From positions 16,685-80,684 of the forward strand of contig JAKSOV010000001.1 in NCBI GenBank assembly GCA_024405415.1: a stretch of 64,000 nt of DNA, written 5' to 3'. Shown piece after piece: positions 1 through 31,427 of this stretch. The DNA comes from Akkermansia sp. Lineage in GTDB: Bacteria > Verrucomicrobiota > Verrucomicrobiia > Verrucomicrobiales > Akkermansiaceae. Numbering within the stretch: the stretch's first letter is position 1; every line of letters starts with the position of its first letter. The notes under the pieces were generated by a model. It did no database searches, was not told the DNA's origin, and saw only the letters and a program-made list of their open reading frames with translations. The translations under genes were made by a program, and so were the position numbers.

Positions 1-671
1 AGCTGCATCTGCGCTCCATCATCCACGAGCTGCTGTGGTTCCTGAAGGGCAGCACCAACATCAAGTACCTCCAAGACAACGGGGTGACGATTTGGGATGA
101 GTGGGCGGACGAAAACGGTGACCTCGGCCCCGTGTACGGCTCCCAATGGCGCGCGTGGCCGGACGGGCAGGGCGGCACCATCGACCAGATTGCCAAGCTG
201 GTGGACGGGTTGAAAAACAACCCGTGGAGCCGCCGCCACCTCGTCTCCGCATGGAATGTGGCGCAGGTGGACGGCATGGCGCTGCCCCCTTGCCACTGCC
301 TGTTCCAGTTCTGCGTCATCCCCGCGCAGAAGCCCGGGGAGAAACACGGCCTGAGCCTCCAGCTCTACCAGCGCAGCTGCGACCTCTTCCTCGGCGTGCC
401 CTTCAACATCGCCAGCTATGCGCTGCTGCTGCTCATGATGGCGCAGGTCTGCGGCTACGAGGCCCGCGAGTTCATCCACACCTACGGCGACCTGCACCTC
501 TATAAGAACCACCTCGACCAAGCCCGCCTGCAACTGACGCGCGACCCGCGCCCGCTGCCCACGATGAAGCTCAACCCCGCCGTGACGGAGATTGACGGAT
601 TTACCTTTGAGGATTTTGAGCTGGTCGGCTACGATCCGCACCCGCACATCAAAGCCGCTGTCTCCGTATGA
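1..671 (+). CDS. thyA: Thymidylate synthase, 5'-truncated by the window edge
   Basis: Frame 3 is open from the window edge ([16 protein letters not shown]...). ThyA motifs PPCHCLFQF and [16 protein letters not shown] are present. The stop overlaps the folA start (ATGA). Confidence 0.95.
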
Positions 672-1141
672 CCCACCGTTTCACAGGCGTGGTGGCCATG
701 GCCGCCGACCGTGCCATCGGCCTGAACGGCACGATGCCGTGGCACTTGTCGGAGGACCTCAAACTCTTCAAACGCCTCACCATGGGGCACCCCGTGCTCA
801 TGGGGCGCAAGACATGGGATTCCCTCGGCAAATGGAAACCCCTGCCGGGCCGCCAGAACATCGTACTCACCCGCGATGCCTCCTTCGCGGCGGAGGGGGC
901 GACCGTCATCCGCGATCTCGCGGAGCTGGACTCGCTCGAGTTGCAGGACGAGGAAATCATGGTCATCGGCGGCGCTCAGATTTACGCCCTCCTGCTGCCG
1001 CGGATGAGCGCGCTGCATGTCTCGGAGGTGCAGGGGAGCTATGAGGCGGACACCTACTTCCCCGAGTTCGCGCCGCAGTTCGCCCGCCGCGAGGTGCTGG
1101 AGCACCTGACGGGCTTCGACCACGTGCTCTACACCAAGTGA
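668..1141 (+). CDS. folA: Dihydrofolate reductase
   Basis: 157 aa with the DHFR-type N-terminus [18 protein letters not shown]...[11 protein letters not shown]. Translationally coupled to thyA. Confidence 0.92.
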
Positions 1142-1163
1142 GCCGCCCCGCGGCAACCCGGCT

Positions 1164-1928
1164 ATGATGACCTCCCTCGCTACGGCAGATTTTGCGCGTT
1201 GGGGCGCGAGCCACATCGGCGCGCTCGTGCTGCTGATGCTCGCCGTGGCGGGGCTGGTGGCTGCGCGTAGGCTATCGGAGCAGGGGCGCACGCTGCTTTG
1301 CCGCGGGCTGGCGCTTTTTCTGCTGCTGTTGACTGCCGCGGAATACAGCTACCGCGCGCTGGACCCCGTGCCCGACCCCGTGGGCGAGTATCTGCCGCTG
1401 CACTACTGCGGCGTCATGGTGTTCGTGTCCGCCTATGCCCTGTGGAGCCGCTGCCCGTGGGCCTGCGCCATGGTGTACTACTCCGTCCTCACGGCTTGCA
1501 CGCAGGCTCTCATCACCCCCGCGCTCACGCTCGATTTCCCGCACCCGCGCTTTTGCTTCTTCTTTGCCTCCCACGGCGCGCTGCTGCTTGCCGCGCTGGC
1601 TCTGCCCCTGCTGCAAGGCTGGCGCACCCGCAAGTGGGACCCCCTCCTCACCCTCGGGCTGATGGACGTGTACATGCTCTGCGTCATCCCCGTCAACATG
1701 CTGCTCGGCACCAACTACGGCTTCACGCAGGAAGCCCCGCCCGGCAGCATCCTCTCCCACCTCGGCCCCGCGCCGTGGTACTACCTCGTCCTGCACCTCC
1801 CCGGGCTGGCCGTCTTTTGGGTGCTGTCGCGCTTTGTAAAAGTTGGAGGTTGGAGGTTGGAAGTTGGAAGTAACAAATTCGGCTCGCTTCGCCCGCGGAA
1901 AAAGCACAACGCAAAGCGTATGCGGTAG
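1164..1928 (+). CDS. Polytopic integral membrane protein (tentatively TIGR02206/YwaF-like)
   Basis: 254 aa with multiple hydrophobic helices and an LPLHYCG motif. The last ~30 codons (VKVGGWRLEVGSNK...) are encoded by the repeat element at 1838-2034. Confidence 0.6.
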   Translation: MMTSLATADFARWGASHIGALVLLMLAVAGLVAARRLSEQGRTLLCRGLALFLLLLTAAEYSYRALDPVPDPVGEYLPLHYCGVMVFVSAYALWSRCPWACAMVYYSVLTACTQALITPALTLDFPHPRFCFFFASHGALLLAALALPLLQGWRTRKWDPLLTLGLMDVYMLCVIPVNMLLGTNYGFTQEAPPGSILSHLGPAPWYYLVLHLPGLAVFWVLSRFVKVGGWRLEVGSNKFGSLRPRKKHNAKRMR

Positions 1929-2034
1929 TTTGAGCTAAAAGCTGTAGCCCGCGCTTTGCGTTGCGTTTTAACCTTGCGGCGTCGGCCGCACAAATTTCAA
2001 CACTTCCAACTTCCAACCTCCAACTTCCAACTTT
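1838..2034. repeat. Palindromic intergenic element with heptamer-repeat arms
   Basis: A 33 nt left arm (4 x [A/G]GTTGGA) at 1838-1870 is the reverse complement of 2002-2034 with 1 mismatch. The ~130 nt core has internal hairpins. Its inner ends (AAATTCGGC..., ...CCTTGCGGCG..GCCGCAC.AAAT) resemble those of the element at 63312-63509. Confidence 0.8.
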
Positions 2035-2112
2035 CCGCATACTTCCAGCCTAATTCAATGACTTTTCCCTTGAATGCACGCCCTGTTTGTGCTACTTTCT
2101 CCCCGTAACACT

Positions 2113-3513
2113 ATGAACATCACTCCTAAATTCACGCCCGTGCTGGATCCGGACTTCATTGCTCCGGTGCTTTGGACAAAGGCTTATGAAGAGAAGGTCG
2201 CCGCCACCCCCGGCTCCCACGACCTCGATATCGCCATGGTGCGCCCCGACGGCACCTGCTTCCGCTGGCACGGCGTTGTCCTCCCCCACGAGGGCGAGGA
2301 GAACATCGCGCTGAACATCACCTATGTGGAGCGCGTCGTCAAGTTCCTCATCTGGATGAAGGGCGGCAGCCGCCTCATCGTGGCGGGTGATGACAAGATT
2401 GCCGAGACCATCGGTCAGATTTACAGCAAGGACGGCGCCCGCGCCTTCGATTGGGACTGGACCTGCAAGGTGTATGACGAGCCCTTCGTGGTGAGCACGG
2501 TGGCCTCCGCCGCCGACCTGCCCGCCGAGAACAGCACCTCCGTGGCCCTCGGCCGCAACCTGGACGGTTACCGCATCGGCTTCGACCTCGGCGGTTCCGA
2601 CCGCAAGGCCGCCGCCGTGGTGAACGGCGAGGTCGTCTACTCCGAGGAGGTCGTCTGGAACCCCTACCACGAGAAGGACCCCCACTACCATCTGGAAGGT
2701 GTGGATGACTCCCTGCTTCGCGCCGCCAAGCACCTGCCCCAGGTGGACGCCATCGGCGGTTCCGCCGCCGGTGTGTACGTGAACAGCGAGCCCCGCGTGG
2801 CCTCCCTCTTCCGCGGCATCGACCCCGAGGACTTCAAGTCCGTCATCCGCCCCATGTTCGCCACGCTCAAGCAGCGTTGGAGCGAGCGCATGGGCAAGGA
2901 AGTTCCCTTTGAAGTCGTGAACGACGGCGAAGTGACCGCTCTCGCGGGCGCCATGAGCCTCAACGACTCCCAGGTGCTCGGCATCGCCATGGGCACCTCC
3001 CTCGCCGCCGGTTATGTGGACGGCGAAGGCCACATCATGCCCTGGCTCAATGAGCTGGCCTTCGTGCCCGTTGACTATCAGGCTGACGGCGGCGTGGACG
3101 AGTGGTCCGGCGACAAGGGTGTCGGCGCCATGTACTTCTCCCAGCAGGCCGTGGCCCGCCTCGCTCCCCGCGCGGGCTTCGACTTCGGCGATATGCCCTA
3201 TCCCGAGCAGCTGAAGAAGGTGCAGGCCGCCATGGAAGCCGGCGATGACCGCGCCCGCAAGATTTACGAGACCATCGGTGTCGAGTTCGGCTACACCATC
3301 GCCTACTTCGCCAAGAAGTTCTACGGCGTGCGCAACCTCCTCTTCCTTGGCCGCGTGGCCACGGGTGAGGGCGGTCAGATCATCATCGACAAGGCGGACG
3401 AAGTCATCAAGGCCGAGTTCCCCGAGCTGACCATCAACCTCTGCGTGCCCGATGAGAAGATGAAGCGCCACGGCCAGGCCGTTGCCGCCGCCTCGCTTCC
3501 CAAGATCGGCTAA
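2113..3513 (+). CDS. ROK/ASKHA-type sugar-kinase-like protein
   Basis: Motifs GFDLGGSDRKAAAVV, VVNDGEVTALAGA and LGIAMGTSLAAGYV fit the ROK/actin-fold ATPase pattern. The ATG at 2074 lies inside a TTGAAT -35-like box, so 2113 is preferred. Confidence 0.6.
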   Translation: MNITPKFTPVLDPDFIAPVLWTKAYEEKVAATPGSHDLDIAMVRPDGTCFRWHGVVLPHEGEENIALNITYVERVVKFLIWMKGGSRLIVAGDDKIAETIGQIYSKDGARAFDWDWTCKVYDEPFVVSTVASAADLPAENSTSVALGRNLDGYRIGFDLGGSDRKAAAVVNGEVVYSEEVVWNPYHEKDPHYHLEGVDDSLLRAAKHLPQVDAIGGSAAGVYVNSEPRVASLFRGIDPEDFKSVIRPMFATLKQRWSERMGKEVPFEVVNDGEVTALAGAMSLNDSQVLGIAMGTSLAAGYVDGEGHIMPWLNELAFVPVDYQADGGVDEWSGDKGVGAMYFSQQAVARLAPRAGFDFGDMPYPEQLKKVQAAMEAGDDRARKIYETIGVEFGYTIAYFAKKFYGVRNLLFLGRVATGEGGQIIIDKADEVIKAEFPELTINLCVPDEKMKRHGQAVAAASLPKIG

Positions 3514-3540
3514 GGCTGACAAGCACAACGCTTTCCCCCA

Positions 3541-3580
3541 CCGAGGACAGGTGCCCCGCACCTGCCCTCGGTTTTTTCTT
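3541..3580 (+). terminator. Rho-independent terminator after the ROK-like gene
   Basis: GC-rich hairpin CCGAGGACAGGTG-CCCC-GCACCTGCCCTCGG followed by TTTTTTCTT. Confidence 0.7.
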
Positions 3581-3592
3581 CGTCCTCCGTTC

Positions 3593-3621
3593 TTGCCGCC
3601 GCCCCCGCCTTGTGCTAGGAT
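3593..3621 (+). promoter_or_regulatory. Sigma-70-like promoter, leaderless configuration (GH36 gene)
   Basis: TTGCCG-17 nt-(TGc)TAGGAT, with the ATG at 3628 six nt after the -10 box. Confidence 0.5.
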
Positions 3622-3627
3622 GAGGCC

Positions 3628-5784
3628 ATGAGCGCTGCGTTCCACCTCCTTTCCGATTCCGTGCAGGTTTCTCTCCGCGTCACGGAGCAGGGGAAACTCA
3701 TGCTGAGCTACTTCGGGGCGCGGCTTGCGGAGGCGGATGAGGCCTTTGTGGCACCTGCCTGCGAGTGGCCTCTCGCGTCCACGGATTTCGACTCCCGCGG
3801 GCTGTGGGGCAATTACAGCGGGGAGTTCGCCTACCACCTCATCCTACCTGACGGCACGCTGGGCTGGGACCCGCATGTGGTGAGCGCCGAACAGGCAGGG
3901 GCAGGGGCGCTTTCTGCGGTGTTGGCCGACCCGCGCTATCCCGAGCTGGTGCTCTCCCTGCGCCTGACATTGAGCGCGGAGGGCGTGCTGACGCTTTCCC
4001 CCACGCTGCACAACGGCTCGGCGGGTGAGGTGACGATTCTGCGCGCGCTGTCTGCGGCGTTCCCGCTGCGGGCGGAGCAGGGGTATTATCTCACGAGCTT
4101 TCGCGGCGGCTGGGCGGGCGAAAATCTTTTTATGGAGGAAGCGCCTATCGCCCGCGGCTGCACCGTGTCCTGCGGCAGCACCACGGGCGTGAAATGCGCG
4201 CAGGAGGGCACGCCCGGCTTTGTGCTGGGGCTGGGGAACGCCGCGCAGGAGGAGGCGGGGAATGTGCTGCTCGGCGCGCTCGCGTGGAGCGGCAATTACA
4301 CGCTGAGTTTTAAACACAGCACCTACGGGCAGCTTTTCTGCGGTATGGGGCATGACTTTTCTCATGCGCCGCACCGCTTGGGGGCAGGGGAATCGCTCGT
4401 GCTGCCCGATGCCCTGCTGGTGTTCTCTGACTGCGGCAAGGGAGAGGCCTCACGCCGTCTGCACCGCCACTTGCGGGAGCGCGTCATCCCGCGCGGGCGG
4501 GAGACGCGCCGCATCCTGCTCAACAGCTGGGAGGGCGTGCATTTCGATGTGGATGAAGCGACGCTGCATGCCATGATGGAGCAGAGCGCGGACTTGGGCG
4601 TGGAGCTGTTTGTGCTCGATGACGGCTGGTTCGGCAAGCGCAAGGACGACACGTCTTCCCTCGGCGACTGGACCCCCGATGCCGACAAGCTGCCGCACGG
4701 GCTCGCCGCGCTCACGGAGCATGCGCAGCGCGTGGGAATCGACTTCGGCCTGTGGATGGAGCCTGAGATGATTTGCCCCGTCAGCGAGCTGTACGCCGCC
4801 CACCCCGAGCTGGCGCAAACCCTGCCCGGCATCACCCCGCGCGTGGAACGCCACCAGCTTGTGCTCGACCTCGCCAACCCCGCCGCCGACCCCGCGGGTC
4901 GCGTGAGCGCCGTGCTCGATACCGCTCCCGGCATTTCTTATGTGAAGTGGGATTGCAACCGCAAGATGAGCGACACGGGGTCCGCTTACCTCCCCGCCGA
5001 CCGCCAAGGCAATCTGTTTTTCGACTCCGTGCGCCGCTACTACGATGGCCTTGCCCGCCTGCGAAAGGAACACCCCGCTGTCACGCTGCAATGCTGCTCC
5101 GCGGGCGGCGGGCGGCTCGACCTCGGTGCCGCTGCTTACCACGAGGAATTCTGGCTCTCCGACAACACGGACGCGCACGACCGACTCCGCATGCAATGGG
5201 CGGCGACCCACTTCTTCCCCGCGAACGCCCTCGGCTGCCACGTCACCGCCAGCCCGAACCTCTACACGGGCCGCGAAACCTCCCTCAAATTCCGCTTCGA
5301 TGTCGCCCTCATGGGGCGCCTCGGGCTGGAGCTCGACCCCCGCACCCTCACGCCCACCGACCGCGCCGCCCTCCGCGAGCGCATTGCGCTGGCCAAGCGT
5401 CTCCGCCCCATCGTCCAACTCGGCGAGCTCTACCGCCTCGTCTCCCCCTTCACCTCGCCCGACTGCGCCGTCCTCTACCGTCACGGCAAGAGTGCCCTCG
5501 TCCTCGCCTACACCACCGACCGCGCCTACACCGACCAACAGACTACGATTCCCCTCCGCGGCCTGAATCCGCACGCCCGCTACCGCATCGAAGAACTCGC
5601 CCCCGATGAGACAGGTCGGCACTGCCTTCTCTCATCTGCCTCCTCCTTGTCACGCCGTAGCCTTGGCGAAGACGGATGCCCCGACACTCCCCTCTCCGGC
5701 TCCTACCTCCTCACCCGCGGTCTCCCCCTCCGCTGGACCCGCCCCCTCCAATCCTGCGTCCTGCTGCTCACGGAAGAAGCGTGA
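3628..5784 (+). CDS. Alpha-galactosidase, glycoside hydrolase family 36
   Basis: 718 aa with GH36 hallmarks LNSWEGVHFDVDE, FVLDDGWFGKRKDDTSSLGDW and YVKWDCNR. The C-terminal region carries the 31 nt dispersed motif (LSRRSLGEDG). Confidence 0.85.
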   Translation: MSAAFHLLSDSVQVSLRVTEQGKLMLSYFGARLAEADEAFVAPACEWPLASTDFDSRGLWGNYSGEFAYHLILPDGTLGWDPHVVSAEQAGAGALSAVLADPRYPELVLSLRLTLSAEGVLTLSPTLHNGSAGEVTILRALSAAFPLRAEQGYYLTSFRGGWAGENLFMEEAPIARGCTVSCGSTTGVKCAQEGTPGFVLGLGNAAQEEAGNVLLGALAWSGNYTLSFKHSTYGQLFCGMGHDFSHAPHRLGAGESLVLPDALLVFSDCGKGEASRRLHRHLRERVIPRGRETRRILLNSWEGVHFDVDEATLHAMMEQSADLGVELFVLDDGWFGKRKDDTSSLGDWTPDADKLPHGLAALTEHAQRVGIDFGLWMEPEMICPVSELYAAHPELAQTLPGITPRVERHQLVLDLANPAADPAGRVSAVLDTAPGISYVKWDCNRKMSDTGSAYLPADRQGNLFFDSVRRYYDGLARLRKEHPAVTLQCCSAGGGRLDLGAAAYHEEFWLSDNTDAHDRLRMQWAATHFFPANALGCHVTASPNLYTGRETSLKFRFDVALMGRLGLELDPRTLTPTDRAALRERIALAKRLRPIVQLGELYRLVSPFTSPDCAVLYRHGKSALVLAYTTDRAYTDQQTTIPLRGLNPHARYRIEELAPDETGRHCLLSSASSLSRRSLGEDGCPDTPLSGSYLLTRGLPLRWTRPLQSCVLLLTEEA

Positions 5785-5882
5785 CGCTTCACCCATGAGG
5801 ACCGTCCCTCATTCCGTACACTCTTTCCGAGCAAAAATAGCGGTGTATATACACCGTGATGTAATGAATGCCGGGGTGAGGT

Positions 5883-6272
5883 GTGCGTGATTTTCACCTC
5901 GCCGAAGAAGCCGCCGCTTTCATTGCCGACAATCTCGACATTCCCTTCACCACGGATGAGATGAACCGCTACATCCGCACCCACCACACGGAACATCCCG
6001 ACTTTGCCCAAACCATCCCCTCCTCCTTCGCTCGCCTCGTCGCCTACGACCGCGCACAAGCCGCCGAGTCCTCCCCCTTGTCACGCCGTAGCCTTGGCGA
6101 AGGCGGAGCCGCCGCTTACTACATCGCCGTCTTCCAACACTTCGGCTACGCTCTCATTTCCGCCGACGGCACCCGCTCCCTCTCCGAAATCGCCGCCTAC
6201 TCCGACTACATCAACGCGCTCCGCTCCTATCAAGGAAGTGCAACAGAAAATGCCCCCTCTGCTGAATCGTAG
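5883..6272 (+). CDS. Hypothetical protein (GTG start)
   Basis: 129 aa ORF with host-like GC-rich codon usage and no recognisable domain. It contains a second copy of the 31 nt motif (LSRRSLGEGG). Confidence 0.4.
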   Translation: MRDFHLAEEAAAFIADNLDIPFTTDEMNRYIRTHHTEHPDFAQTIPSSFARLVAYDRAQAAESSPLSRRSLGEGGAAAYYIAVFQHFGYALISADGTRSLSEIAAYSDYINALRSYQGSATENAPSAES

Positions 6273-6616
6273 GACACTAAACGCTACACAGACTGACAGC
6301 GTAAAAGGAACAAGCTCTTTTCGATTTTGTTTGCGCATTCCAACACATATGCGCGTCTCCTGAGAGCGCGCTCTTCTGCTTTTGTCGCCACACGCACTCC
6401 CTTAAACATGATGCCGGAACTGATTGGTCTCGTAACTTTAGCTCTTTTAGCAGTAGAGGGGTCTTTTATTTGCGAGCTAAATGCATCACTAGCGTTGAGA
6501 TTATAATTATTGATGTTTGTTTGTGATGCAATCTAATAATTATTATTTTTCTTGACTAGAAGAAATGGAGTTTTAAATTATTATGGATAAGTCTTTATGT
6601 CAGAAAGCTATTCAAT

Positions 6617-9229
6617 ATGGAGAAGAAAATAAATGTAAATTCTATTGCGAAATGGGTAATTGTTCCCCTTTTATTCATGCTGTTTTTTGTTTTTCTTCCT
6701 CTTGCAACTGATCGATTGGGAGAACTCATAATCGTATGGAAAAACTGCCTTTCATGCTTTACACCAAAAAGTGTCGATATCTTGACCATTATCATATCAG
6801 TCGTTATTTTGGAGATTGCTGTCTTATGTGTACATAGGCGATGGCTGTACTGTTTTTCAGTTATTCCAGTGATATGTGTGTGTGCTTTTTGGATTCTGTA
6901 TTACTCAGAAGATAAGCACTGGTTGCTATTTAGGAATTTTGCCGTTTATATTTTCATGGGGATGGGGGTAATCGTTTCTCTTCCCTTTTTTCATGAACGC
7001 GCGAGAAAACAAAAGGAAACTGATGAAAAAGTTGATGTGGGATATGGAAGAGTTGGAATATACAACGCTGGTATAGAACGCATTATTCGCTTGATTCTTA
7101 GAGCCAATGTTGGAAGGAGTATTGCTGTTTTTGGTACATGGGGAAGCGGTAAAACTCATTTTCTGAATTACCTAAAGTATCGATTAAGGGAACTCAACAA
7201 ACATAATGATGGTACTTGTCCGAAAATATCAGTAAAGCACATTAATCTGTGGCAATGCAACGATTTAGAAGATGCATGGAAGAGTATTGTCGACGGATTG
7301 CATGAGGCAATAAGAGGAAAAGCTCAGAGCCCATTCAGAATAGTAGCGCAAAGATTGCTACAGGTATTAAGTCGTTCAGAGATTTCAATTTTAGGCGTTA
7401 CTGGTGCATTAGATACTTTGGTTAATAAAAGAAATAACGCAGGCGTGGAGATTGCGGCTAATACATTAACTGAGAAGATGAATTATCCAACTAACGCAGC
7501 TGTCCTGATTATAGATGATGTTGAACGCGCAGATATCGACATAGTAAATGCCCTTCTTCCATTGTTGGAGAGATTACAAAAAATAAGTGGCTTGGTAGTG
7601 GTTTGTGCAATCGCCAGAGATGAATTGGAAATGCGCTATGAAAATGCAGGACTTTCATCGCAATTGCTACAGGGGTATATGGATAAATTATTTGAGCAGT
7701 CGATATGTTTGCCAACAATACCTAAGCTCCATGCTTCAATCGAGTTTAAAAGGGCAATCGAGAAAAATTATCCACAATGTAAGTTTTTATTGCAATTTTC
7801 GCAGAGGTATATCGTCCCTTTTGATACGCCTCGTCAGATGATGCGCGTTGTGGAACGATTGTCGTCTATAGAACTAGATTATATGACCGATTCGCTCATG
7901 AAAAATGAGACTATTTCATGCGTTTTCTACATGGAGATATTGCGATTACTTTATCTGGGGTTTCTTCAAGATAGTAGGTTCCTTAAACAATTAAAAGCTT
8001 TGCGGGATGTTATTAATGAAATAAAAAAATCAGATTTGTCAAATAATGATGATGAGTCGGTACATCCCGAGGAGCATGATAATAGACTATCCTCAATTAA
8101 TGTTTTTGATGAACTAATAGCTGAATACGCACCTGGTAGCCGATTATTGCCATCTATATGTAATTCTTTGGCGTATTTGGTTAATAGTAATTGCTATGAT
8201 GAATTGCTGAAGGCATATCACATGAGTTATACTAAAAAAGTTTCTTTGAGTGATGTGGAATTATCGCATGTCGTAAGCGAAGTCGCAAATGCACATTATT
8301 ATTCTCAAATTAGTACTTACTTGCATTCATATTGTACTTTTGAAACTAATGTAAACAATTTTTCGGAGGCAACAGCTTCGTTTTTGAAGATTGTACTCTC
8401 TCGCGCTTATGAGAGCACAAATTTCGCAAGATTGCTATATAATGTTGTCAAAATTGAAATGACGTTTAATGGTTCATGTCGTCACCTTATCAATAGAAAA
8501 GAATTTCTTCTTGATTTGATTATTACTAATATCAAGAGTGAAAGAGGTTCGGGGGTTCTAGAAAAATATTTTTTGCATGCGTTGGTATTGCTGTCTCGTA
8601 CTATGCCTTTACATGAATTATATAAATCCGTTGATCAACTATTGCTGTTTGAACTAAATGCTAGTGCATTTTTGACTGGTTTTTGGTATAGTTCCCACCA
8701 TGACGATTTAAAGAGGTTAAAAAAATCAAAGGCTACAGAATCCCTATATTCCCTATTTGCACGTAGAATTATACAAGATTACTCTGGGTATAATTCTATA
8801 CAGTTGTCAGAACTTGGAGATGTTAACATTATTCGCTTTTTTGAGAAGCATTCGTCGCAATTTTCTCCGGATGTGTATGAGAATGCCTATAAAAAGGCGC
8901 ATCAGGGGAATTTGGTGACGTTGTTTGAAAATTATTTTTGTGTAGTTTTAAATGATAATCAGACGCTTTATCCCAATACTATACGGATAGCAAATCTTAT
9001 GTTTATAAGTCAAGGGGCAAAAGAATTTTGGGCGAAATTAAATATTTCTCAGAAAAATAGGACAATAGATATTATTGCGAGACTTAGAGGAATAATCAAC
9101 CAGAGTACTAACTCTCAATTTAGGCAGCTTCTTTCTATTATTGAATTGGTTGGACAGTATGTAAAAGTAGCTAAAATTCGCAGAAATCCTAAAAATATAG
9201 GTGTCGCCGTATCGAATATTAAACGGTAA
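6617..9229 (+). CDS. KAP-family P-loop NTPase with four N-terminal transmembrane helices
   Basis: 870 aa, AT-rich. Four hydrophobic helices in the first ~120 aa. Walker A AVFGTWGSGKTHFLNYL and Walker B VLIIDDVERAD, followed by a long helical C-terminal region. Confidence 0.8.
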   Translation: MEKKINVNSIAKWVIVPLLFMLFFVFLPLATDRLGELIIVWKNCLSCFTPKSVDILTIIISVVILEIAVLCVHRRWLYCFSVIPVICVCAFWILYYSEDKHWLLFRNFAVYIFMGMGVIVSLPFFHERARKQKETDEKVDVGYGRVGIYNAGIERIIRLILRANVGRSIAVFGTWGSGKTHFLNYLKYRLRELNKHNDGTCPKISVKHINLWQCNDLEDAWKSIVDGLHEAIRGKAQSPFRIVAQRLLQVLSRSEISILGVTGALDTLVNKRNNAGVEIAANTLTEKMNYPTNAAVLIIDDVERADIDIVNALLPLLERLQKISGLVVVCAIARDELEMRYENAGLSSQLLQGYMDKLFEQSICLPTIPKLHASIEFKRAIEKNYPQCKFLLQFSQRYIVPFDTPRQMMRVVERLSSIELDYMTDSLMKNETISCVFYMEILRLLYLGFLQDSRFLKQLKALRDVINEIKKSDLSNNDDESVHPEEHDNRLSSINVFDELIAEYAPGSRLLPSICNSLAYLVNSNCYDELLKAYHMSYTKKVSLSDVELSHVVSEVANAHYYSQISTYLHSYCTFETNVNNFSEATASFLKIVLSRAYESTNFARLLYNVVKIEMTFNGSCRHLINRKEFLLDLIITNIKSERGSGVLEKYFLHALVLLSRTMPLHELYKSVDQLLLFELNASAFLTGFWYSSHHDDLKRLKKSKATESLYSLFARRIIQDYSGYNSIQLSELGDVNIIRFFEKHSSQFSPDVYENAYKKAHQGNLVTLFENYFCVVLNDNQTLYPNTIRIANLMFISQGAKEFWAKLNISQKNRTIDIIARLRGIINQSTNSQFRQLLSIIELVGQYVKVAKIRRNPKNIGVAVSNIKR

Positions 9230-9456
9230 TATAATGTGTATGACTATCATCTGTACATTATAGTTTGCATTTCTAACAAATGCGAGCTTTCATGACTGCG
9301 TATGTTTCCTGCTATGTTGCACTTGTTGCGAGTACTAATGAATCTGTGCTGTGGTTCAGGAACTCCCTGCCGTTTGCGCTTTAGCTAAGGCTGGTACTAA
9401 AGTGGGGCATCTCCACCATGAGTGTAGGTGTGACACGGCGGGTGTGTGCTTGTTCA

Positions 9457-10038
9457 TCAGCCCTCGGCGTAGGAATAGCGGATTTGCAGGGGAAGATTGA
9501 ACACGATGCGTCCATCCTCCAGCAGATGAAGTTTGTCGCAGTCGTAGCGAGAAGTAGACGGGTGTTCGAAATAAGTGTGATGGTACAAATAGTCGCGCAG
9601 TTGGGTGCGTTGGTAGGGCTGAAAGGTGTGTTCTCTGATGCGGAAATGTGGAGGAATGGTGATGTCTCCATCCCATGCTTCGTGCGGAGTCATGCCGAGG
9701 GCTAGGGCTTCAAGAAAACGCTGGATTTTGAGTCGGTAGCGCGTGCCGATGCGGAGCGGGTCGGCAGCGGTCAATTCTTCGCAGAGCTCATCCGTCTTAC
9801 AGGTGCAGCCATGATGACGAACAAGAAGTAGCATCTCCGCGAGGACGGCGGGCATGATTTCATCCACATTGAGCAGATTTTCTTTGAATGGCTGCGGAAC
9901 ATCGACCCAAACAAATTTATCGTTCCTCACTTCGTAGGTGAAGCTTGTCTGCGGGGAAGCAGGGAGAAGAATCGTAGACATAGAAAGGGCAGGGGCTCGG
10001 TGTGGTATACCGGACTCCTGCCCGCCTGTCAACAGCAA
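9457..10038 (-). CDS. Hypothetical protein
   Basis: 193 aa ORF of intermediate GC (a likelier start is MSTILLP at 9981). By eye it weakly resembles the 10423-10791 product (DPLRIG..YRLKIQRFLEALALG vs DPLHLG..YFYKMRCLLRAYFLG). Confidence 0.45.
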   Translation of the reverse strand: MLLTGGQESGIPHRAPALSMSTILLPASPQTSFTYEVRNDKFVWVDVPQPFKENLLNVDEIMPAVLAEMLLLVRHHGCTCKTDELCEELTAADPLRIGTRYRLKIQRFLEALALGMTPHEAWDGDITIPPHFRIREHTFQPYQRTQLRDYLYHHTYFEHPSTSRYDCDKLHLLEDGRIVFNLPLQIRYSYAEG

Positions 10039-10056
10039 TGACTGCCGATGTTGGGT

Positions 10057-10443
10057 TTAGTCATCCAAAAGACCCGCCTCTTGGAAAAGTTGGACTAAGC
10101 GTTTTGCTGTTGCTTTATCGATTTGCAGAGTCTGGCTTGTTTTTCGCATATTGTTGTCTTGCCGCTCATCACTCCCGAACATATTGATTTGGAGTATCGA
10201 GTTTTTTGAAATGATGTATTCGGAGACAACAGGTTTGTGCACTGACTTAATGCAGTCTGATGATTTAGTGAAATTGTCTAAGCGGATTCGTGCCATGTGT
10301 GTAGGGGTAACGCTCATTCTATACCCGGAGATAAAGGGAAAGTCAAGTCTCACTTTGGATTCTTGCCGATTCCTGGAAAAAATCTTCTTGATGAGGCTAA
10401 CAGCATCCGGTACGCTGTCGCTATGGAAGCCTATACCATCCAT
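10057..10443 (-). CDS. Small hypothetical protein, C-terminal HTH-like segment
   Basis: Maximal ORF is 128 aa. TTGACT-17-TATAGA on the minus strand (10318-10346) suggests the real start is MARIRLDNF at 10296 (79 aa). The C-terminus QIDKATAKRLVQLFQEAGLL looks like a winged-helix recognition segment. Confidence 0.35.
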   Translation of the reverse strand: MDGIGFHSDSVPDAVSLIKKIFSRNRQESKVRLDFPFISGYRMSVTPTHMARIRLDNFTKSSDCIKSVHKPVVSEYIISKNSILQINMFGSDERQDNNMRKTSQTLQIDKATAKRLVQLFQEAGLLDD

Positions 10444-10791
10444 TTGAAAGAACCGCTGATTATCCCTAAAAATCTGGATGAAAACTTCCTTTTCATGGTT
10501 GACTCATCTCTGGTGCAACTCTGGCCGCAGATAGTACGCCTGTGCGAGATAGAGAAGCTGTCGCTACAATCAGCAACGGAGCGAATGGTAACTCTCGACC
10601 CGCTGCATCTAGGCATGCCCGAATGGTACTTTTACAAAATGCGATGCCTTCTGCGGGCGTATTTTCTGGGTGATGAGGTGATGACTCTTCCTGTAGAAGT
10701 TGTTCGTCAGGAGGGAAACTGCAGCAGGTTCACATTTGAGGAGTCGAGACAACTAGGAACAATGCTGCTCCATGTGGTACAGCTTGCTTGA
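10423..10791 (+). CDS. Hypothetical protein, weak paralog of the 9457-10038 product
   Basis: ORF 10297-10791. The internal start MEAYTIHLKEP at 10423 avoids overlap with the divergent gene. No recognisable domain. Confidence 0.4.
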   Translation: MEAYTIHLKEPLIIPKNLDENFLFMVDSSLVQLWPQIVRLCEIEKLSLQSATERMVTLDPLHLGMPEWYFYKMRCLLRAYFLGDEVMTLPVEVVRQEGNCSRFTFEESRQLGTMLLHVVQLA

Positions 10792-10825
10792 ATTCGGGGA
10801 TCCGGGGTATAGCGTTTTTCGTTTC

Positions 10826-12157
10826 TTAAATGGAACGGATAAATAGACTATATTGAATCCACTGTTTAAGAAATTTTGCAGTGCTGGATATATGCGACAT
10901 CAGGAACCAGTCATCCTCATTCTTAAAAAATGAATCCTCCTTATTAGTGCCTTGAGCAAGATAATAATCAATGACTTGTTGAAGCTCTATGTATTTCATA
11001 CTTGGTGAAGTGAAAATTCTTAAATCGCATGTCTTTAACCCAAGCCGCTCAAATAGCTCGTGCGTACTTATTGATTTTTCTGCTAGCTGAAACGCTGTAT
11101 CTGTATCGAAGGAAATTAGATATGAAATAATGACGATGATATATAAAGATGCGTTTGAAATGTTTTCTAAGGAGTCTATGTTATTTAGCTTTAGAAGATG
11201 GGTTATAGTCCTTACCCAACTTTCTATTTCTCTAAGCTGTAATTTTTTCTTTTTAATAATCGCGAGAATGAGGTCTGGCAACCCCATAGGCTCTGTAAAG
11301 TTATAGTTGTTATGTAGCAAGTAGAAAAAATATTGGCAGTTGTAATCTCTCGTATTCCTATGTTCAAGTGCAATTTCGGGTAATTGAAGAGTCGTCTTTA
11401 TAAATTTATTAAGATATGTTTCAGCATTATTTTCTCTTAAACCATGAGTGCTGCAGATTGAATCAATTAGGGAGTGCTTGTTCATAATCAAAATGAACTT
11501 GCAATCTTTGCTCGTAAATAGGTGCTTAATTGTTTCAAGCATTTGTAAAGCAAATCCTGGGCGACACCTATCTAATTCGTCTATGATTACTATTAGTTCT
11601 TTATCTCTTCTGGCAAGGTCTAGCAATTCTTTTGCTGTGTCAATTCGAAGCCTATCCGTTCCTGCTGCCTGTAAGAAATCCTTGAATTGCTGTAATGTGG
11701 GATTTTCTGCTTTCTCCTGCGCTTTGCTAGTTGCTTCAGAAATCCCTTTTAAATCAAGTCCTGATCCGATGTGGATGATTTGGTTTGCCAATTCTTTCGT
11801 TGCGGCTATAGCCATCGCACTGCACAGCTTAAATCCAGCTTTCGTGAATTGCTCATGCTCTTTAGCGTCCGTTTCCGAATAAAGATTTGCTACAAAAAGG
11901 GGAAGAGGGTCTGCGGCGTAGTCAAAGATAGACGCATTCCAGTAAATGCATTTGTGCGTTTTTTCGTGATTCTCATTGAGGTATTTCATCATGCGCATGG
12001 CATGGGTGCTTTTTCCTGCCCCCCACGGACCTTGCAAGACAACGGGAGATATTGCCTCAGCAGGAGCGGAACAAATAAGTTCGCACATTGATTGCGCGAT
12101 TGCTTCACGTTTAAAAATATCTTCGGGTAGTTCGATGACTTGTGTCTCGTTTGGCAT
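10826..12157 (-). CDS. KAP-family P-loop NTPase (soluble)
   Basis: AT-rich. Walker A VLQGPWGAGKSTHAMRM and the KAP signature IVIIDELDRCRPGFALQMLETIKHLF. The ORF extends to 12223, but that stretch is the groEL terminator hairpin, so MPNETQV at 12157 is preferred. Confidence 0.8.
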   Translation of the reverse strand: MPNETQVIELPEDIFKREAIAQSMCELICSAPAEAISPVVLQGPWGAGKSTHAMRMMKYLNENHEKTHKCIYWNASIFDYAADPLPLFVANLYSETDAKEHEQFTKAGFKLCSAMAIAATKELANQIIHIGSGLDLKGISEATSKAQEKAENPTLQQFKDFLQAAGTDRLRIDTAKELLDLARRDKELIVIIDELDRCRPGFALQMLETIKHLFTSKDCKFILIMNKHSLIDSICSTHGLRENNAETYLNKFIKTTLQLPEIALEHRNTRDYNCQYFFYLLHNNYNFTEPMGLPDLILAIIKKKKLQLREIESWVRTITHLLKLNNIDSLENISNASLYIIVIISYLISFDTDTAFQLAEKSISTHELFERLGLKTCDLRIFTSPSMKYIELQQVIDYYLAQGTNKEDSFFKNEDDWFLMSHISSTAKFLKQWIQYSLFIRSI

Positions 12158-12184
12158 GGTGGTAGGAGGGAGGTGAATAGTAAG

Positions 12185-12228
12185 TTTAAAATCAATGCGG
12201 GGTGTCCATCGGGTGATGGACACCCCGC
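12185..12228 (-). terminator. groEL rho-independent terminator
   Basis: On the minus strand: GCGGGGTGTCCATC-ACCC-GATGGACACCCCGC, followed by ATTGATTTTAAA. Confidence 0.65.
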
Positions 12229-12280
12229 GAAAGGGTTAGTTAGGCTGTGACTTGGATTTATGAAACCGTGCCTGCGGCAC

Positions 12281-14037
<1,757 letters not shown>

Positions 14038-14322
14038 TTAGTCAATGACGGCGAGAATATCGCTCTCGTTCAGGATGACATAGGTCGTGCCGCCGTAAGT
14101 GACTTCCGTGCCGCCGTATTTGGTGATGAGCACCTTGTCGTTGACGGCGACATTGAAGTTGATGGGGTTGCCGTCCTTGTCGTGACCGCCCGTGCCGAGC
14201 GCACGAACAACAGCCTCCTGCGGCTTCTCCTTAGCGGTATCCGGCAGGAAAAGACCGCCGGCGGTTTTCGTTTCAGCTTCCACGCGCTCCACGAGCACAC
14301 GCTGTCCAATCGGTTTAATCAT
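14038..14322 (-). CDS. groES: Co-chaperonin GroES
   Basis: 94 aa. MIKPIGQRVLVERVEAETKTAGGLFLPDTAKEKPQEA... Confidence 0.97.
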   Translation of the reverse strand: MIKPIGQRVLVERVEAETKTAGGLFLPDTAKEKPQEAVVRALGTGGHDKDGNPINFNVAVNDKVLITKYGGTEVTYGGTTYVILNESDILAVID

Positions 14323-14385
14323 AATAGTGTGTTGTTTGGTTTAGTTGTTGAGTTGTATAAAGAAGATAAAAGAAAAATGTGTTGT

Positions 14386-15066
14386 TTAATTTGTGCCGTT
14401 TTTAATAATTTTCATTGTGTTGTCAATGTATTTTCGTGGCTCTCCAGAAACAGAATTTCGCAGTAGAGATAATGAATTTTGAATTTCCTTTTGGGGAATG
14501 CAATCAAAGCGATGCCAAAGTAACTCGTAATGATGAATTCTGCTTCCTTCTATGTACGCTTCAGTATCTTGGAAATAAATGGGAAGATCTTTTGCGTCTT
14601 CTTCTGCCGAATGGTGAACTACAACACCATAATACTTCGTGCTTTCCTGAAGTTGAAATGCGTCAATGAGTGCTTGTCCGAAAAACAACTGCTTTGTAGT
14701 ATCACAAGTTATCTTGCCTTTAGCAATGGCTCCCTTCATTGGTATTTTTTCACCAATAGCATAGCGCATAATGTCCAGCGTAACGTTGGATAAAGAGATT
14801 AGGCTTTTGCGTGAGTCATTTTTGCTGAAAATAACTATGCTGTCAGAAAAAAGACTAATTTGTAGTCCTTCTTCTTTGTGTGATTCCATGGATTCTGAAA
14901 TCTTTTTTTGCAAACCTTGGAGAGTGTTCAATACTTGAGCATGCGTGCTTCTGGCTACTCTATCTTTAAATCCTAGTATATCTAAAAATGCGACAAAACG
15001 GGAACATGTAATAGGTGCGCGCCCTTTTACAATAATAGGAGAGGATGTCCCAGATGTTTCTTGCAT
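14386..15066 (-). CDS. Palm-domain nucleotidyl-cyclase-like protein (class III cyclase / GGDEF / minimal Cas10-polymerase-like; tentative)
   Basis: AT-rich. Three motifs are spaced as in cyclase palm domains: AFLDILGFKDRV, ISLFSDSIVIFS and MKGAIAKGKI. The start MQETSG at 15066 lies 1 nt after the stop of the upstream GIY-YIG gene. The longer ORF to 15186 would overlap that gene by 118 nt. Confidence 0.45.
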   Translation of the reverse strand: MQETSGTSSPIIVKGRAPITCSRFVAFLDILGFKDRVARSTHAQVLNTLQGLQKKISESMESHKEEGLQISLFSDSIVIFSKNDSRKSLISLSNVTLDIMRYAIGEKIPMKGAIAKGKITCDTTKQLFFGQALIDAFQLQESTKYYGVVVHHSAEEDAKDLPIYFQDTEAYIEGSRIHHYELLWHRFDCIPQKEIQNSLSLLRNSVSGEPRKYIDNTMKIIKNGTN

Positions 15067-15067
15067 A

Positions 15068-15367
15068 TTATTCAACGGTGTTTTGTGTAATGACGTAGCA
15101 ATAAACAATTTTTGCAGAGTCATCGCCACCTCCTGGTGCTCCTCGCATACCGCGTTTTTGATAAATCTTTTCAATCTCTCTAGCAACAGTAGATGATTGA
15201 GCTGTGCGATAAATCCACCACATGCCTTCGCGTTTTACGTTGTGCTCATGGAACAATCTTCTGTTGATGTCGGCAGTTACGCCAACATAAAATTCGGAAT
15301 AATATGTTTTTCCGCTCTTATTTATGTGCTCGTCGAAATCTTGTATGATTTCTTCTTTCGTTTTCAT
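15068..15367 (-). CDS. Small GIY-YIG (URI) nuclease-domain protein
   Basis: 99 aa, AT-rich. KTYYSEFYVGVTADINRRLFHEHN followed by AREIEKIYQKRG fits the GIY-YIG core pattern. Confidence 0.55.
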   Translation of the reverse strand: MKTKEEIIQDFDEHINKSGKTYYSEFYVGVTADINRRLFHEHNVKREGMWWIYRTAQSSTVAREIEKIYQKRGMRGAPGGGDDSAKIVYCYVITQNTVE

Positions 15368-15455
15368 GGCGAAATGTTATTTGTTTTAAGTTCGGCGCGG
15401 CCGGAGGCCGCGCGTTACTTAAATGATTTGTACATTGTACTTCGTACTTTGTACA

Positions 15456-27131: not shown

Positions 27132-28173
27132 ACATATTCCAAAAGCGCCGTGCTGCGCTTTGGCCGATGGGCGAGAGATAGCGGCTGTGCAGCAGCCGCG
27201 GGGTGGTGTGGCCCATTTCGAGTTGGAGGGCGGGAAGATTGCGGAAGTGCCGTGCGTGGTAGGTGGCGAAGGTGTGGCGGCAGATGTCGGGCCGCCAGCT
27301 GCGGAAGCGGGCGGCGCGGCGCAGGGCGCGCCATCGTTGCTCCCAGCGGTCGGGGATGGTGAGGGCACCGCGGTGCTGTTTGATGTAAGTCGCGACTTTT
27401 CTCAACGGCACCACGCGCCCGCCGCCGGTCTTGCTGGTGTTGGGGCGGATGATGAGTTCATCCCCCACAATATCCCGCTGCGGGTCAATCCGCGTCACCT
27501 CCGTGGGGCGGATGCCGCAGTAGAGCATGAGTTTCAGCGAGAGCTGCATGTCGCGATGCTCGGGGCGTTCCGCAGCGCGCTCCAGCCGCCCCACTTCCTC
27601 CGGCGTCAGCGGTTCGATGGGCTTTTCTTTCACTCGCGGGGCTTCGATAGCATCCACAGGGTTCCTGTCACACCACTCCTGCCGCAGGCCGTAGGCAAAG
27701 ATGGAGTGCAGAATGGAACGCCCCTTGTGGTAACTGCTCGCGCTGTTCCCGAAGGCAGCCGCCAGCATCGCGCGGCACTCCTTCACCCCCATCGCCCGCA
27801 GCGGCCTCTCCGCGACACCCGACACTCGCAACATTCGGTTGGTATAGTGCCGCAGATTCCTCCGCGAGGTCGGCCTCAACCCGCTCCTCGCCGCCAAACT
27901 CTGCCGCACCGCCTCGGCAAAGCTCACCGTCTCCTCCGCTTTCTTTACAGTCTCCACTCCATCTACGACTACCCGCCGCAGCAACACCATCAGCTCCGCT
28001 CGTTCCAGCCCGCCCGTTCTCTCTCCTCCCAATCCCTCACAAGCCTCCGCTACCAACCGCGCCGCATCCGTGGCATTCAGTCCGTACTCTGTCAAAATCT
28101 CATTCGCTGTTCTTCTTTTCATAGTCATCCTTTCAAAGGGTGCGTCAATGCAAATGCAGCAAAAATTGAGCAT
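27130..28173 (-). CDS. Tyrosine recombinase / phage-type integrase
   Basis: 347 aa. C-terminal catalytic region RPTEV...CRHTFATYH...GHTTPRLLHSRY gives the R..H-x-x-R..Y pattern. A possible promoter TTGTCA-18-ATTATA lies 10 nt before the ATG at 28173. Alternative starts are at 28128 and 28122. Confidence 0.85.
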   Translation of the reverse strand: MLNFCCICIDAPFERMTMKRRTANEILTEYGLNATDAARLVAEACEGLGGERTGGLERAELMVLLRRVVVDGVETVKKAEETVSFAEAVRQSLAARSGLRPTSRRNLRHYTNRMLRVSGVAERPLRAMGVKECRAMLAAAFGNSASSYHKGRSILHSIFAYGLRQEWCDRNPVDAIEAPRVKEKPIEPLTPEEVGRLERAAERPEHRDMQLSLKLMLYCGIRPTEVTRIDPQRDIVGDELIIRPNTSKTGGGRVVPLRKVATYIKQHRGALTIPDRWEQRWRALRRAARFRSWRPDICRHTFATYHARHFRNLPALQLEMGHTTPRLLHSRYLSPIGQSAARRFWNM

Positions 28174-28346
28174 TCGCAGATACTATAATGCGTTGAAAAA
28201 GAAGAGTTGACAAGTACTCGGCAAAGGGAGCAATAGATGCCCATCTATAAAACATTGAAAAAATGGCACATTGAGACCTCTCCCTTTGAAAGGGTGTATA
28301 GTGTTTCCGCTTGCGTTTCGGGGCGCAGGATAACATCTCAAGCACT

Positions 28347-31300: not shown

Positions 31301-31427
31301 TGATGACTCCCCGACCACCATGTATTTCCGCGGCGGTAAGGAAATCTGCACGACCCCCGAACCCGCCACGGCGACGCTCTCCCTCCTTGCCCTCGCGGCC
31401 CTCGCCTCCCGCCGCAAGAGAAAGTAA
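28347..31427 (+). CDS. Pmp-like (polymorphic membrane protein repeat) surface protein with a PEP-CTERM anchor
   Basis: Signal peptide MKFHLSVSLLQMLCFLFVKQPIYAQS. At least 10 GGA[ILV] repeats alternate with FxxN (GGAIYND..FNSNS, GGAIYHN..FNNNS, etc.). The C-terminus PEPATATLSLLALAALASRRKRK is a PEP-CTERM sorting signal. The 5' ~1.8 kb is AT-rich and the 3' ~1.3 kb is GC-rich. Confidence 0.8.
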   Translation: MKFHLSVSLLQMLCFLFVKQPIYAQSFERSGNVDDEVIPYCETHGNMLRSDDKYRNGEMNYVERQRDGFSLGDYKTINFGGIVNDVSNSSLYASGGAIENVDVIVLQKNGEVSFCENLAISKAANASGGAAFNAGKFLLQDNEDVLFVNNSTSFKYSSSYTEAMGGAIYNDASSSFILCGNQNINFNSNSVTGRSWGNVSGGAIYHNGAAFKICDNVNVAFNNNSASILSGDGHATGGAIRIDGSGTFEIYNNKCVTFNENSVTTGSNLYYGESSYGGALYSRSSFSIKGNEKIVFSNNLVSGSHFAWGGAIYAYAPYSLYGDSQIISENGDITFRNNSAASYERAEGGAIYIAVASGRITLRNNGDITFCDNSASATALLDNQDVYARGGAIFSAGSINLTGNGNIVFSGNSVSSESSTMNVYGGAIYSENGSKITISRNKNVLFEKNVEINRGVYRLRSIYSTAGREFVDLCSDEGYSITFRDSVYVGNTVSINTNGEKGDIIFTGATTESDLRAVKGGIDGTAQEIKNSRTSIFALMNIHGGRLIVSDGAVLRGDGIKIRDKANATIRLNNGILDETFYTISVSSGSGLEFEGENSLTASSVSMADNSFLSFILDDGQTAVNWNANLDIQGGLSFNLTHEDKPVHDTYALLAMQSGNTVMGWDAANLSISGASAEHLVWENNTLYYRPLLVQENGDTTLDKDVDTDAAGGAIGGKDDVSIDGKGHTLSVKNEVQLVQMALKDGIVKLEGENNGIVSVTLTEGGELVLTAGAGLKTGDIISMVASGKGELVISGDITIDSKGLKGKAGEQATVSHADAQVLGDATISNVRVEESTIDLAEGSTVGFEHVVLAATTRITDDPATANLDDVTAELVMGGNASLTGSDLLLAGTTLAQSGNTGVTLTLSDDASVLMLEATTFDSVTLTGSSLVLELAGMDVEIYNGAEWIAVSFTSGTDFATFDSSLAVTLSIDGICYESGYTVSGDDSPTTMYFRGGKEICTTPEPATATLSLLALAALASRRKRK

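Follow-up and report, generated by a model that had tools for sequence, protein, structure and literature searches.

A variable locus beside the groESL genes of Akkermansia, a probable defence-gene hotspot carrying two KAP-family NTPases

We analysed a 64,000-nucleotide stretch of an Akkermansia sp. metagenome-assembled genome (assembly GCA_024405415.1, contig JAKSOV010000001.1, positions 16,685 to 80,684; hereafter the window) containing an AT-rich island that encodes two nucleoside triphosphatases (NTPases) of the KAP family, a membrane-anchored protein of 870 amino acids (aa) named KAP-L and a soluble protein of 443 aa named KAP-S, on either side of a core of small genes. The comparison of about ten versions of the locus suggests that it is probably a variable defence-gene hotspot with a core derived from an HpaII-type restriction-modification system, in which KAP-L and KAP-S represent separate, independently exchanged single-gene cassettes. 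The hotspot belongs to a GC-rich lineage of Akkermansia and lies next to its dnaK-groES-groEL cluster. An anti-phage function of both NTPases is suggested by their neighbours and by precedent in the family.

An initial annotation of the window had proposed that the membrane-bound and the soluble KAP protein form, with the open reading frames (ORFs) between them, one uncharacterised defence or conflict system. The defence context stood up to comparison, RADAR, AbiE, HEC-01 and restriction-modification genes being found in the slots of the locus; the novel paired system did not, each KAP gene occurring elsewhere without the other. Two of the outcomes that the initial annotation had listed as speaking against its proposal were observed: the genes do not recur as a set, and a model used for defence annotation, PADLOC PDC-S20, recognises KAP-S.

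Slots and cargo of the locus

Versions of the locus were gathered by exact-protein look-ups and one GTDB scan, and were recognised by groEL (95-99% aa identity), the small genes ORF-A and ORF-B, and a 129-aa gene. Slot 1 extends from the 129-aa gene to ORF-A, slot 2 from ORF-A to ORF-B, and slot 3 from ORF-B to groEL; in the window they contain KAP-L, a small gene named ORF-C, and KAP-S, respectively. The GTDB genome scan, performed with the alpha-galactosidase encoded left of the island, returned 16 loci, with groEL synteny kept only in L006.

The flanks of the hotspot are conserved. On the left, the 129-aa gene (5883-6272, forward strand) has homologues at the equivalent position in L003 (76% aa identity), L094 (75%) and L091 (44%). 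On the right, the product of groEL (12281-13930, reverse strand) is 95-99% identical in L022, L091, L094 and L096, and the intrinsic terminator of the gene (12197-12228, reverse strand; a 14-bp perfect stem with 10 GC pairs) precedes the KAP-S start codon by 39 nt. Between these flanks, the limits of the cargo can be read from the points where homology is lost and regained. The AT-rich KAP-L cassette of slot 1 covers 6281-9438 (GC 0.36-0.38): the DNA homology of the window to L003 and L094 stops at 6280, past the 129-aa gene, and in the loci devoid of KAP-L (L094, L091, L096 and L006) homology is lost at about 6280 and regained at 9427-9439. The AT-rich KAP-S cassette of slot 3 covers 10783-12186: in L091, where ORF-B directly precedes groEL, homology is lost at 10782, and on the right of KAP-S it is regained at 12187 (L096), 12231 (L094) or 12280 (L091 and L006).

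The composition follows the same limits. GC content falls from 0.58-0.69 at 1-6250 to 0.33-0.40 at 6250-9250, rises to 0.44-0.53 at 9250-10750, falls again to 0.34-0.42 at 10750-12000 and reaches 0.66 past 12250; the whole 6-kb block (GC 0.33-0.53 vs 0.62-0.68 in its surroundings) spans from the 129-aa gene to groEL. Gene by gene, GC content is 0.359 for KAP-L, 0.385 for KAP-S, 0.526 for ORF-A and 0.635 for groEL, and GC at third codon positions is 0.32 for KAP-L and 0.38 for KAP-S vs 0.86 for groEL. These profiles bear out the abrupt AT-rich block of foreign composition reported in the initial annotation.

Cargo differs from one version to the next, the identities of the neighbouring genes resting on PADLOC and Pfam matches. 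In L003, slot 1 holds a KAP-L allele (40% aa identity) flanked on both sides by DNA of 84-92% identity, and slots 2 and 3 lie beyond the contig end. In L005, slot 1 is beyond the contig end, slot 2 holds ORF-C and slot 3 holds KAP-S at 99% identity, with six synonymous and five non-synonymous codon differences. L022 carries a 209-aa gene and IS1595 in slot 1, a methylase, R.HpaII, Vsr and HEC-01 in slot 2, and a KAP-S allele (44%) in slot 3; at 9581-14904 of this locus, the C5 methylase, an intact 379-aa nuclease, a truncated Vsr and HEC-01A/B lie between the KAP-S allele and ORF-A. L023 displays groEL, the same KAP-S allele as L022, a helix-turn-helix (HTH)-methylase gene and an R.HpaII-like gene, and its contig ends before the slot that could hold KAP-L.

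Neither KAP is present at the locus in L006, L091-L094 and L096. The sister species L006 (alpha-galactosidase 89% identical in aa) has an AIPR-like gene with 236-aa and 219-aa genes in slot 1, a 600-aa gene in slot 2 and a 184-aa gene in slot 3. In L091/L092, slot 1 is reduced to Vsr, slot 2 holds a Schlafen-like helicase and an HTH gene, and slot 3 is empty. L093 combines AbiE, HTH-M78, GmrSD and other genes (slot 1) with a Schlafen-like helicase (slot 2) and an Mrr-like nuclease (slot 3). L094 has a Vsr remnant in slot 1, with RADAR further upstream, ORF-C in slot 2 and 5.6 kb of other genes in slot 3, and L096 has an AIPR-like gene, others and Vsr in slot 1, ORF-C in slot 2 and an AAA_15/21 ATPase in slot 3. 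Finally, slot 1 of L095 holds two tandem, distant KAP genes with transmembrane (TM) segments and two more genes, and slot 2 a Schlafen-like helicase. The tandem genes, at 1-4965 of L095, encode proteins of 879 aa (46% identical to P0005) and 890 aa (about 25-30% identity with the KAP-L family). Tandem pairs of KAP genes thus exist, though this one is not a large-plus-small pair.

KAP relatives are also found outside the hotspot. A KAP-S homologue lies within a type I restriction-modification operon in L024. In L002 (206-11692), the order is RADAR, a 255-aa gene, a KAP-L relative and an AIPR-like gene, the last of these sharing 95% aa identity with its counterpart in the L006 hotspot. RADAR, with RdrA and RdrB, occurs both there and in L094 (1-3292).

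Across versions, KAP alleles of one slot share only 40-44% protein identity, compared with 84-99% (DNA or protein) for the flanks. This is what would be expected of immune-gene cassettes exchanged by homologous recombination through conserved flanks. From groEL to about 10680, L005 matches the window at 99% identity; past that point identity falls to about 88%, and this drop appears to be a recombination junction inside ORF-B. Exchange of the cargo by homologous recombination, with the conserved flanks and the core serving as anchors, would also account for the lack of dedicated mobility features: we found no integrase and no tRNA in the island, and the repeat search detected no direct repeats flanking it. 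The initial annotation had likewise seen no integrase, tRNA or flanking direct repeat. An Rfam search gave no match, and a promoter and terminator scan yielded counts not above the shuffled expectation, the groEL terminator excepted.

The distribution of the two KAP genes bears directly on the possibility that they form one two-NTPase system, perhaps with the small ORFs as adaptors and with the soluble protein as a sensor ATPase enhancing a membrane effector. The two genes are 1.6 kb apart in the window, L095 bears two neighbouring KAP genes, and in L003 and L005 the contigs end too early to show whether the partner gene is there. In addition, tmn, a validated one-gene transmembrane KAP defence system of E. 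coli plasmids, synergises with other defence systems via their sensory ATPase domains (bioRxiv 10.1101/2022.08.21.504612). Against this, L022 and L024 carry KAP-S homologues but no KAP-L, and L002 and L095 carry KAP-L relatives but no KAP-S. The genes are convergent, in separate transcription units, and stand on either side of a core that persists without them. Their families also differ about 65-fold in size (326 KAP-S vs 5 KAP-L matches), and PADLOC recognises KAP-S along its full length as PDC-S20, a single-gene candidate. KAP-L and KAP-S align over the P-loop region with no more than 24% identity (E 0.007) and are therefore not a recent duplicate pair; for the same reason, we rejected the idea that a KAP-plus-HpaII-fragment unit had been duplicated in inverted orientation to form the island. 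We consequently regard a two-NTPase system as very unlikely. A synergy between KAP-L and KAP-S is conceivable, given that tmn is boosted by companion ATPases, yet the comparative data do not call for it.

The two KAP NTPases and their relatives

That both proteins are KAP NTPases, as proposed initially, was confirmed by matches to Pfam PF07693 of 59.8 bits (E 3.5e-16) for KAP-L and 119 bits (E 3.1e-34) for KAP-S, both well above the 20-bit cut-off. Neither gene is disrupted, and the Walker A and B strings quoted in the initial annotation are all present in their products.

KAP-L (6617-9229, forward strand) comprises four TM segments, the KAP NTPase and an all-alpha C-terminal region. The hydropathy scan agrees with the four N-terminal TM helices initially described, placing hydrophobic segments at residues 13-31, 47-65, 76-94 and 103-121. 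The NTPase domain covers approximately residues 145-420, with Walker A at G173-K179 and Walker B at D301-R304; residues G173, W175, G176, S177, G178, K179, D301, E303 and R304 are invariant in the five aligned sequences. The AlphaFold2 (AF2) model, built on this five-sequence alignment, is weak overall, with a mean predicted local distance difference test score (pLDDT) of 72 and a predicted template modelling score (pTM) of 0.42; the C-terminal region (about residues 430-853) is modelled as all-alpha with pLDDT mostly of 75-90. An NCBIfam CbiQ match on the N-terminus (22 bits vs a 112-bit cut-off) was discarded as an artefact of hydrophobic composition.

Only three close homologues of KAP-L were found. 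The protein is identical to an NCBI entry named "KAP family NTPase [Akkermansia sp.]", and a word-indexed search of 5.8 billion proteins returned four other relatives, with 48, 40, 34 and 34% identity. An exhaustive HMMER search of 1.84 billion representatives extended the set to 260 clusters, 47 of them with E < 1e-30, most being about 900 aa long and aligned only over KAP-L residues 50-450 or so. A set of 146 of these representatives has a median length of 899 aa, with Walker A near residue 181; among the 139 in which Walker A could be detected, 94 carry three or four hydrophobic segments ahead of it and 109 carry none behind it. KAP-L thus belongs to a rare yet coherent family of proteins of about 900 aa, in which four TM segments, a KAP domain and a variable tail are combined. 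The divergence of the tail is marked in the comparison with P0002-P0004, identity being 66-81% at residues 301-360 and 21-51% past residue 420. Scanning JGI metagenomes with the KAP-L alignment gave only distant P-loop matches (20-43%), none of which reached the C-terminal region; the same alignment gave two distant matches in IMG/VR, and a plasmid tblastn with KAP-L gave none.

KAP-S (10826-12157, reverse strand) starts at the ATG at 12157 and ends with a helical domain. The initial annotation had given it 465 aa; this reading was rejected and the length corrected to 443 aa, as the GTG start of the longer form falls within the terminator hairpin and homologues with at least 30% identity are nearly all about 430-490 aa long. 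Walker A lies at W45-K49 and Walker B at D193-R197, with W45, G46, G48, K49 and D193-R197 invariant in 76 aligned sequences. The hydropathy scan found no convincing TM segment. In the AF2 model (mean pLDDT 83, pTM 0.80), the NTPase is predicted to carry a soluble helical insert at residues 98-183, without TM helices there. KAP-S has 326 homologues, many in Akkermansia, and matches PHROG 8614 (E 1.2e-56); a tblastn search of phages gave five matches with 26-30% identity. As in KAP-L, the core is better conserved than the C-terminal part, identity to P0010 being 52-65% in the core and 0-37% past residue 280.

Comparison with known systems placed the two proteins in different classes. KAP-S resembles the PADLOC candidate PDC-S20 end to end (E 4.9e-64, residues 34-437 vs profile positions 11-410 of 450) and shares its length of about 445 aa and its occurrence as a stand-alone gene with varied neighbours. 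KAP-L is no member of this class, its matches to PDC-S20 (E 5e-7 over about 85 residues) and PDC-S49 being weak and restricted to the P-loop, with E values of 1e-7 to 5e-6. Its layout is instead that of EF_KAP which, together with three gut-metagenome proteins consisting of TM helices, a KAP domain and an uncharacterised C-terminal region, protects Enterococcus faecalis from phage (PLoS Biol 2026, PMC13552941). In EF_KAP, the protein studied most closely, this protection needs Walker B and the C-terminal region, and does not proceed via abortive infection (PMC13552941). KAP-L displays the same single-gene layout of TM helices, KAP domain and long domain-less C-terminal region, with differences in detail: compared by architecture only, EF_KAP has one N-terminal helix, one helix within the NTPase domain and a 322-aa tail, whereas in KAP-L all four helices are N-terminal, the domain contains none and the tail reaches about 450 aa.

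KAP-L is a membrane-anchored KAP NTPase like tmn, which has two helices within the P-loop domain, between Walker A and B; KAP-L has none there. No tmn model was among the PADLOC matches at E <= 0.1, the presence of such a model in that PADLOC copy being unconfirmed. Insertion of TM helices in the NTPase domain is a classical trait of many KAP members (Aravind et al. 2004, as cited in PMC13552941 and bioRxiv 10.1101/2022.08.21.504612). In KAP-L all four segments precede Walker A, and the insertion is not obligatory for the family.

More distant likenesses concern the NTPase core. PifA, which mediates T7 exclusion by the F plasmid, shares the KAP P-loop (E 1.1e-13 for KAP-S and 5.9e-6 for KAP-L) and aligns over its NTPase part only, at profile positions 7-255 (KAP-S) and 37-107 (KAP-L) of 720. 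The same holds for the P-loop of QatA, with scores of 56 bits for KAP-S and 17.7 bits for KAP-L vs a cut-off of 600 bits; no QatB, QatC or QatD neighbours and no QueC-like or TatD-like genes were found in the island. Searches of PDB sequences gave no match for KAP-L, KAP-S or ORF-A. By predicted structure, the best Foldseek match in the PDB is RdrA of RADAR for both KAP-S (E 4e-7, TM-score 0.41) and KAP-L (E 9e-7), the likeness covering the ATPase core and the helical C-terminal region of both proteins with low TM-scores (0.2-0.4); the next matches are ORC/Cdc6, clamp-loader and STAND ATPases. Neither KAP matches RdrA in PADLOC, and the island of the window contains no RdrB deaminase. The C-terminal region of KAP-L gave no PDB fold match beyond generic ATPase or STAND proteins.

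These comparisons bear on whether the KAP genes are immune genes at all. As an alternative, a region prone to recombination might have gathered them as selfish or addictive passengers, or as membrane-associated NTPases with housekeeping or signalling duties: Pfam and Foldseek revealed no recognisable effector domain in either protein, function is read only from neighbours and family precedent, and a paper cited here notes that PifA probably has a primary function other than phage restriction. We consider this unlikely. Presence and absence of the genes vary among near-identical backbones, their composition is foreign, and the slots hold RADAR, AbiE, HEC-01, restriction-modification and Mrr-like genes elsewhere; moreover, KAP-S is a PADLOC candidate with a PHROG family match, and related architectures have been validated experimentally.

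The small-gene core and the surroundings of the island

The initial annotation had noted three small ORFs between the KAP genes. They are real, with other limits than those first given, and form with a hairpin the core of the locus (ORF-A, hairpin, ORF-C, ORF-B).

ORF-A (9457-9981, reverse strand; 174 aa) is the C-terminal remnant of an HpaII-type restriction endonuclease: it matches Pfam RE_HpaII (E 7.4e-24) over the last 147 positions of the profile (213-359 of 359), and its alignment with the intact L022 enzyme of 379 aa covers residues 174-379 of the latter. Its last 48 residues or so are near-identical to that nuclease, which suggests gene conversion, or a fragment serving as a recombination anchor. 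ORF-A was found in at least nine other loci. The ratio of non-synonymous to synonymous substitution rates (dN/dS) is 0.21-0.31 for ORF-A, vs 0.9-1.5 in off-frame controls, and a plain decaying pseudogene was ruled out, the frame being open in most copies; the L094 copy carries a stop.

ORF-B (10423-10791, forward strand) most likely encodes 122 aa, limits that agree with the NCBI annotation and most homologues. Its 43 homologues are all 121-171 aa long with 58-100% identity to the query, and 30 columns are invariant across 26 divergent copies. The dN/dS of 0.33 (off-frame 0.9-1.5) was computed on a 164-aa reading (10297-10791). A profile-profile alignment with ORF-A/HpaII (probability 90%, E 1.7e-6, 115 columns) identifies ORF-B as a distant paralogue of the HpaII C-terminal region. 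Judging from substitution patterns, ORF-A and ORF-B are, or recently were, under constraint, with the caveat that gene conversion from intact R.HpaII could inflate the signal of ORF-A.

ORF-C (10057-10296, reverse strand) is a conserved small protein of 79 aa without a match in Pfam, NCBIfam, PADLOC or PHROG. A 128-aa reading was rejected, a 2-nt deletion in the window having fused upstream sequence to it. L005, L094 and L096 all keep the frame open, L005 despite a 9-nt deletion in frame and L096 at 61% aa identity, and the patch 10140-10260, only 38-63% identical to L005, still codes for ORF-C. Between ORF-C and ORF-A lies a GC-rich hairpin (9987-10023, reverse strand) that ends 5 nt before the ORF-A AUG; it reads GGGCAGG...CCUGCCC, followed by UUUCU and the start codon. 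In L005 and L094 its sequence is unchanged (100% identity, vs 82-95% for the adjacent coding DNA), and the fold of 9975-10075 has a minimum free energy of -36.3 kcal/mol (z = -2.4). The hairpin could be a terminator of ORF-C or a translational gate for ORF-A.

Relative to the HpaII restriction-modification operon (C5 methylase, R.HpaII and Vsr), of which an intact version occupies this locus in L022 and L023, ORF-A corresponds to the C-terminal 45% of R.HpaII; the window lacks the methylase (6273-12230), the N-terminal half of the nuclease and Vsr, and ORF-A and ORF-B remain free-standing. The core genes are not specific partners of the KAPs; the core persists in loci without either of them. 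They could nevertheless constitute a working module, a regulator or DNA-binding scaffold that stems from the recognition half of HpaII and serves any cargo of the slots, both KAPs included. The constraint on ORF-A and ORF-B would fit such a role, as would the many invariant columns of ORF-B, the intactness of this old, diverged paralogue, and a hairpin better conserved than the surrounding coding DNA. The stop in the L094 copy of ORF-A argues otherwise, as do the absence of ORF-B from L022, its reduction in L006 to a 41%-identical, 80-aa tblastn match, the gene conversion that could mimic constraint on ORF-A, and a cargo too varied for a common partner. A working module thus has a low probability in our assessment, and it seems highly improbable that the core would link KAP-L and KAP-S into one sensor-effector circuit with a tmn-like enhancement.

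Several further features lie around the island. An alpha-galactosidase-like gene (3628-5784, forward strand) lies to the left, and a 45-nt direct repeat (89% identical) at 5639-5683 and 6070-6114, in the 3' end of this gene and in the 129-aa gene, encodes an SRRSLGE(D/G)G motif; both copies fall on the left side of the island rather than at its two ends. Beyond groEL come groES, a second AT-rich islet (14347-15383, GC about 0.38-0.40) and then dnaK. This islet, unrelated to the KAP cassettes, contains a 99-aa gene (15068-15367, reverse strand) with a weak GIY-YIG match and a 226-266-aa gene (reverse strand; 14386-15066 or 14386-15186 depending on the start) that matches PHROG 23933 (E 5.5e-18) and, weakly over residues 65-143 containing FLDILGF, Pfam Guanylate_cyc. 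The islet is missing from L022 and L091, where dnaK adjoins groES. A further AT-rich stretch at 28000-30500 (GC 0.38-0.45) lies within a gene for a 1038-aa protein (28311-31427, forward strand) with Chlamydia-PMP repeats, a surface or adhesin-type gene and not a defence island.

Proposed mechanism and significance

The scenario we favour is that of a variable hotspot whose core (ORF-A, hairpin, ORF-C and ORF-B) stems from a disrupted HpaII-type operon of methylase, nuclease and Vsr, and whose slots 1 and 3 hold KAP-L and KAP-S as unrelated, separately transcribed single-gene cassettes. Each KAP may act alone as an NTP switch that senses phage: detection of a phage component would fall to the fast-diverging alpha-helical C-terminal region, and the conserved P-loop module would bring about oligomerisation or a change of conformation. 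With its four N-terminal helices, KAP-L would exert its effect at the membrane, where it would block genome entry or which it would perturb, and KAP-S would be a soluble sensor of the PDC-S20 type.

Several points weigh against this scenario. PDC-S20 is only a computational candidate, for which our literature search found no paper, the KAP-L family lacks a known validated member, and the anti-phage role of both KAPs is inferred. The sample comprises only about ten versions of the hotspot, and the contigs of L003 and L005, which bear the closest alleles, stop within ORF-A or at its end (window positions 9859 and 9455, respectively), so that the two KAPs possibly co-occur there. The tandem TM-KAP genes of L095 indicate that KAP pairs exist. 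Lastly, the mechanism of cargo exchange is read from mosaic identity.

Defence hotspots flanked by core genes have been described for the pan-genomes of E. coli and Pseudomonas. The locus studied here shares with them conserved flanks, variable low-GC defence cargo and the lack of a dedicated integrase at the site; it differs by its groESL/dnaK flanks and by an internal conserved core from a dead restriction-modification system.

KAP NTPases were only recently shown to be anti-phage, single-gene KAP defence proteins having been validated in 2025-26, and the locus adds two members of the family from Akkermansia, a gut genus of medical interest whose phage defence is little studied. KAP-S provides a further PDC-S20 candidate, and KAP-L represents a rare four-TM family with a private C-terminal domain. 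The locus also exemplifies a dead restriction-modification operon of which fragments live on in the form of conserved small genes. This chaperone-flanked hotspot, mapped here in at least ten versions of its cargo, offers a ready list of candidate defence genes of Akkermansia.

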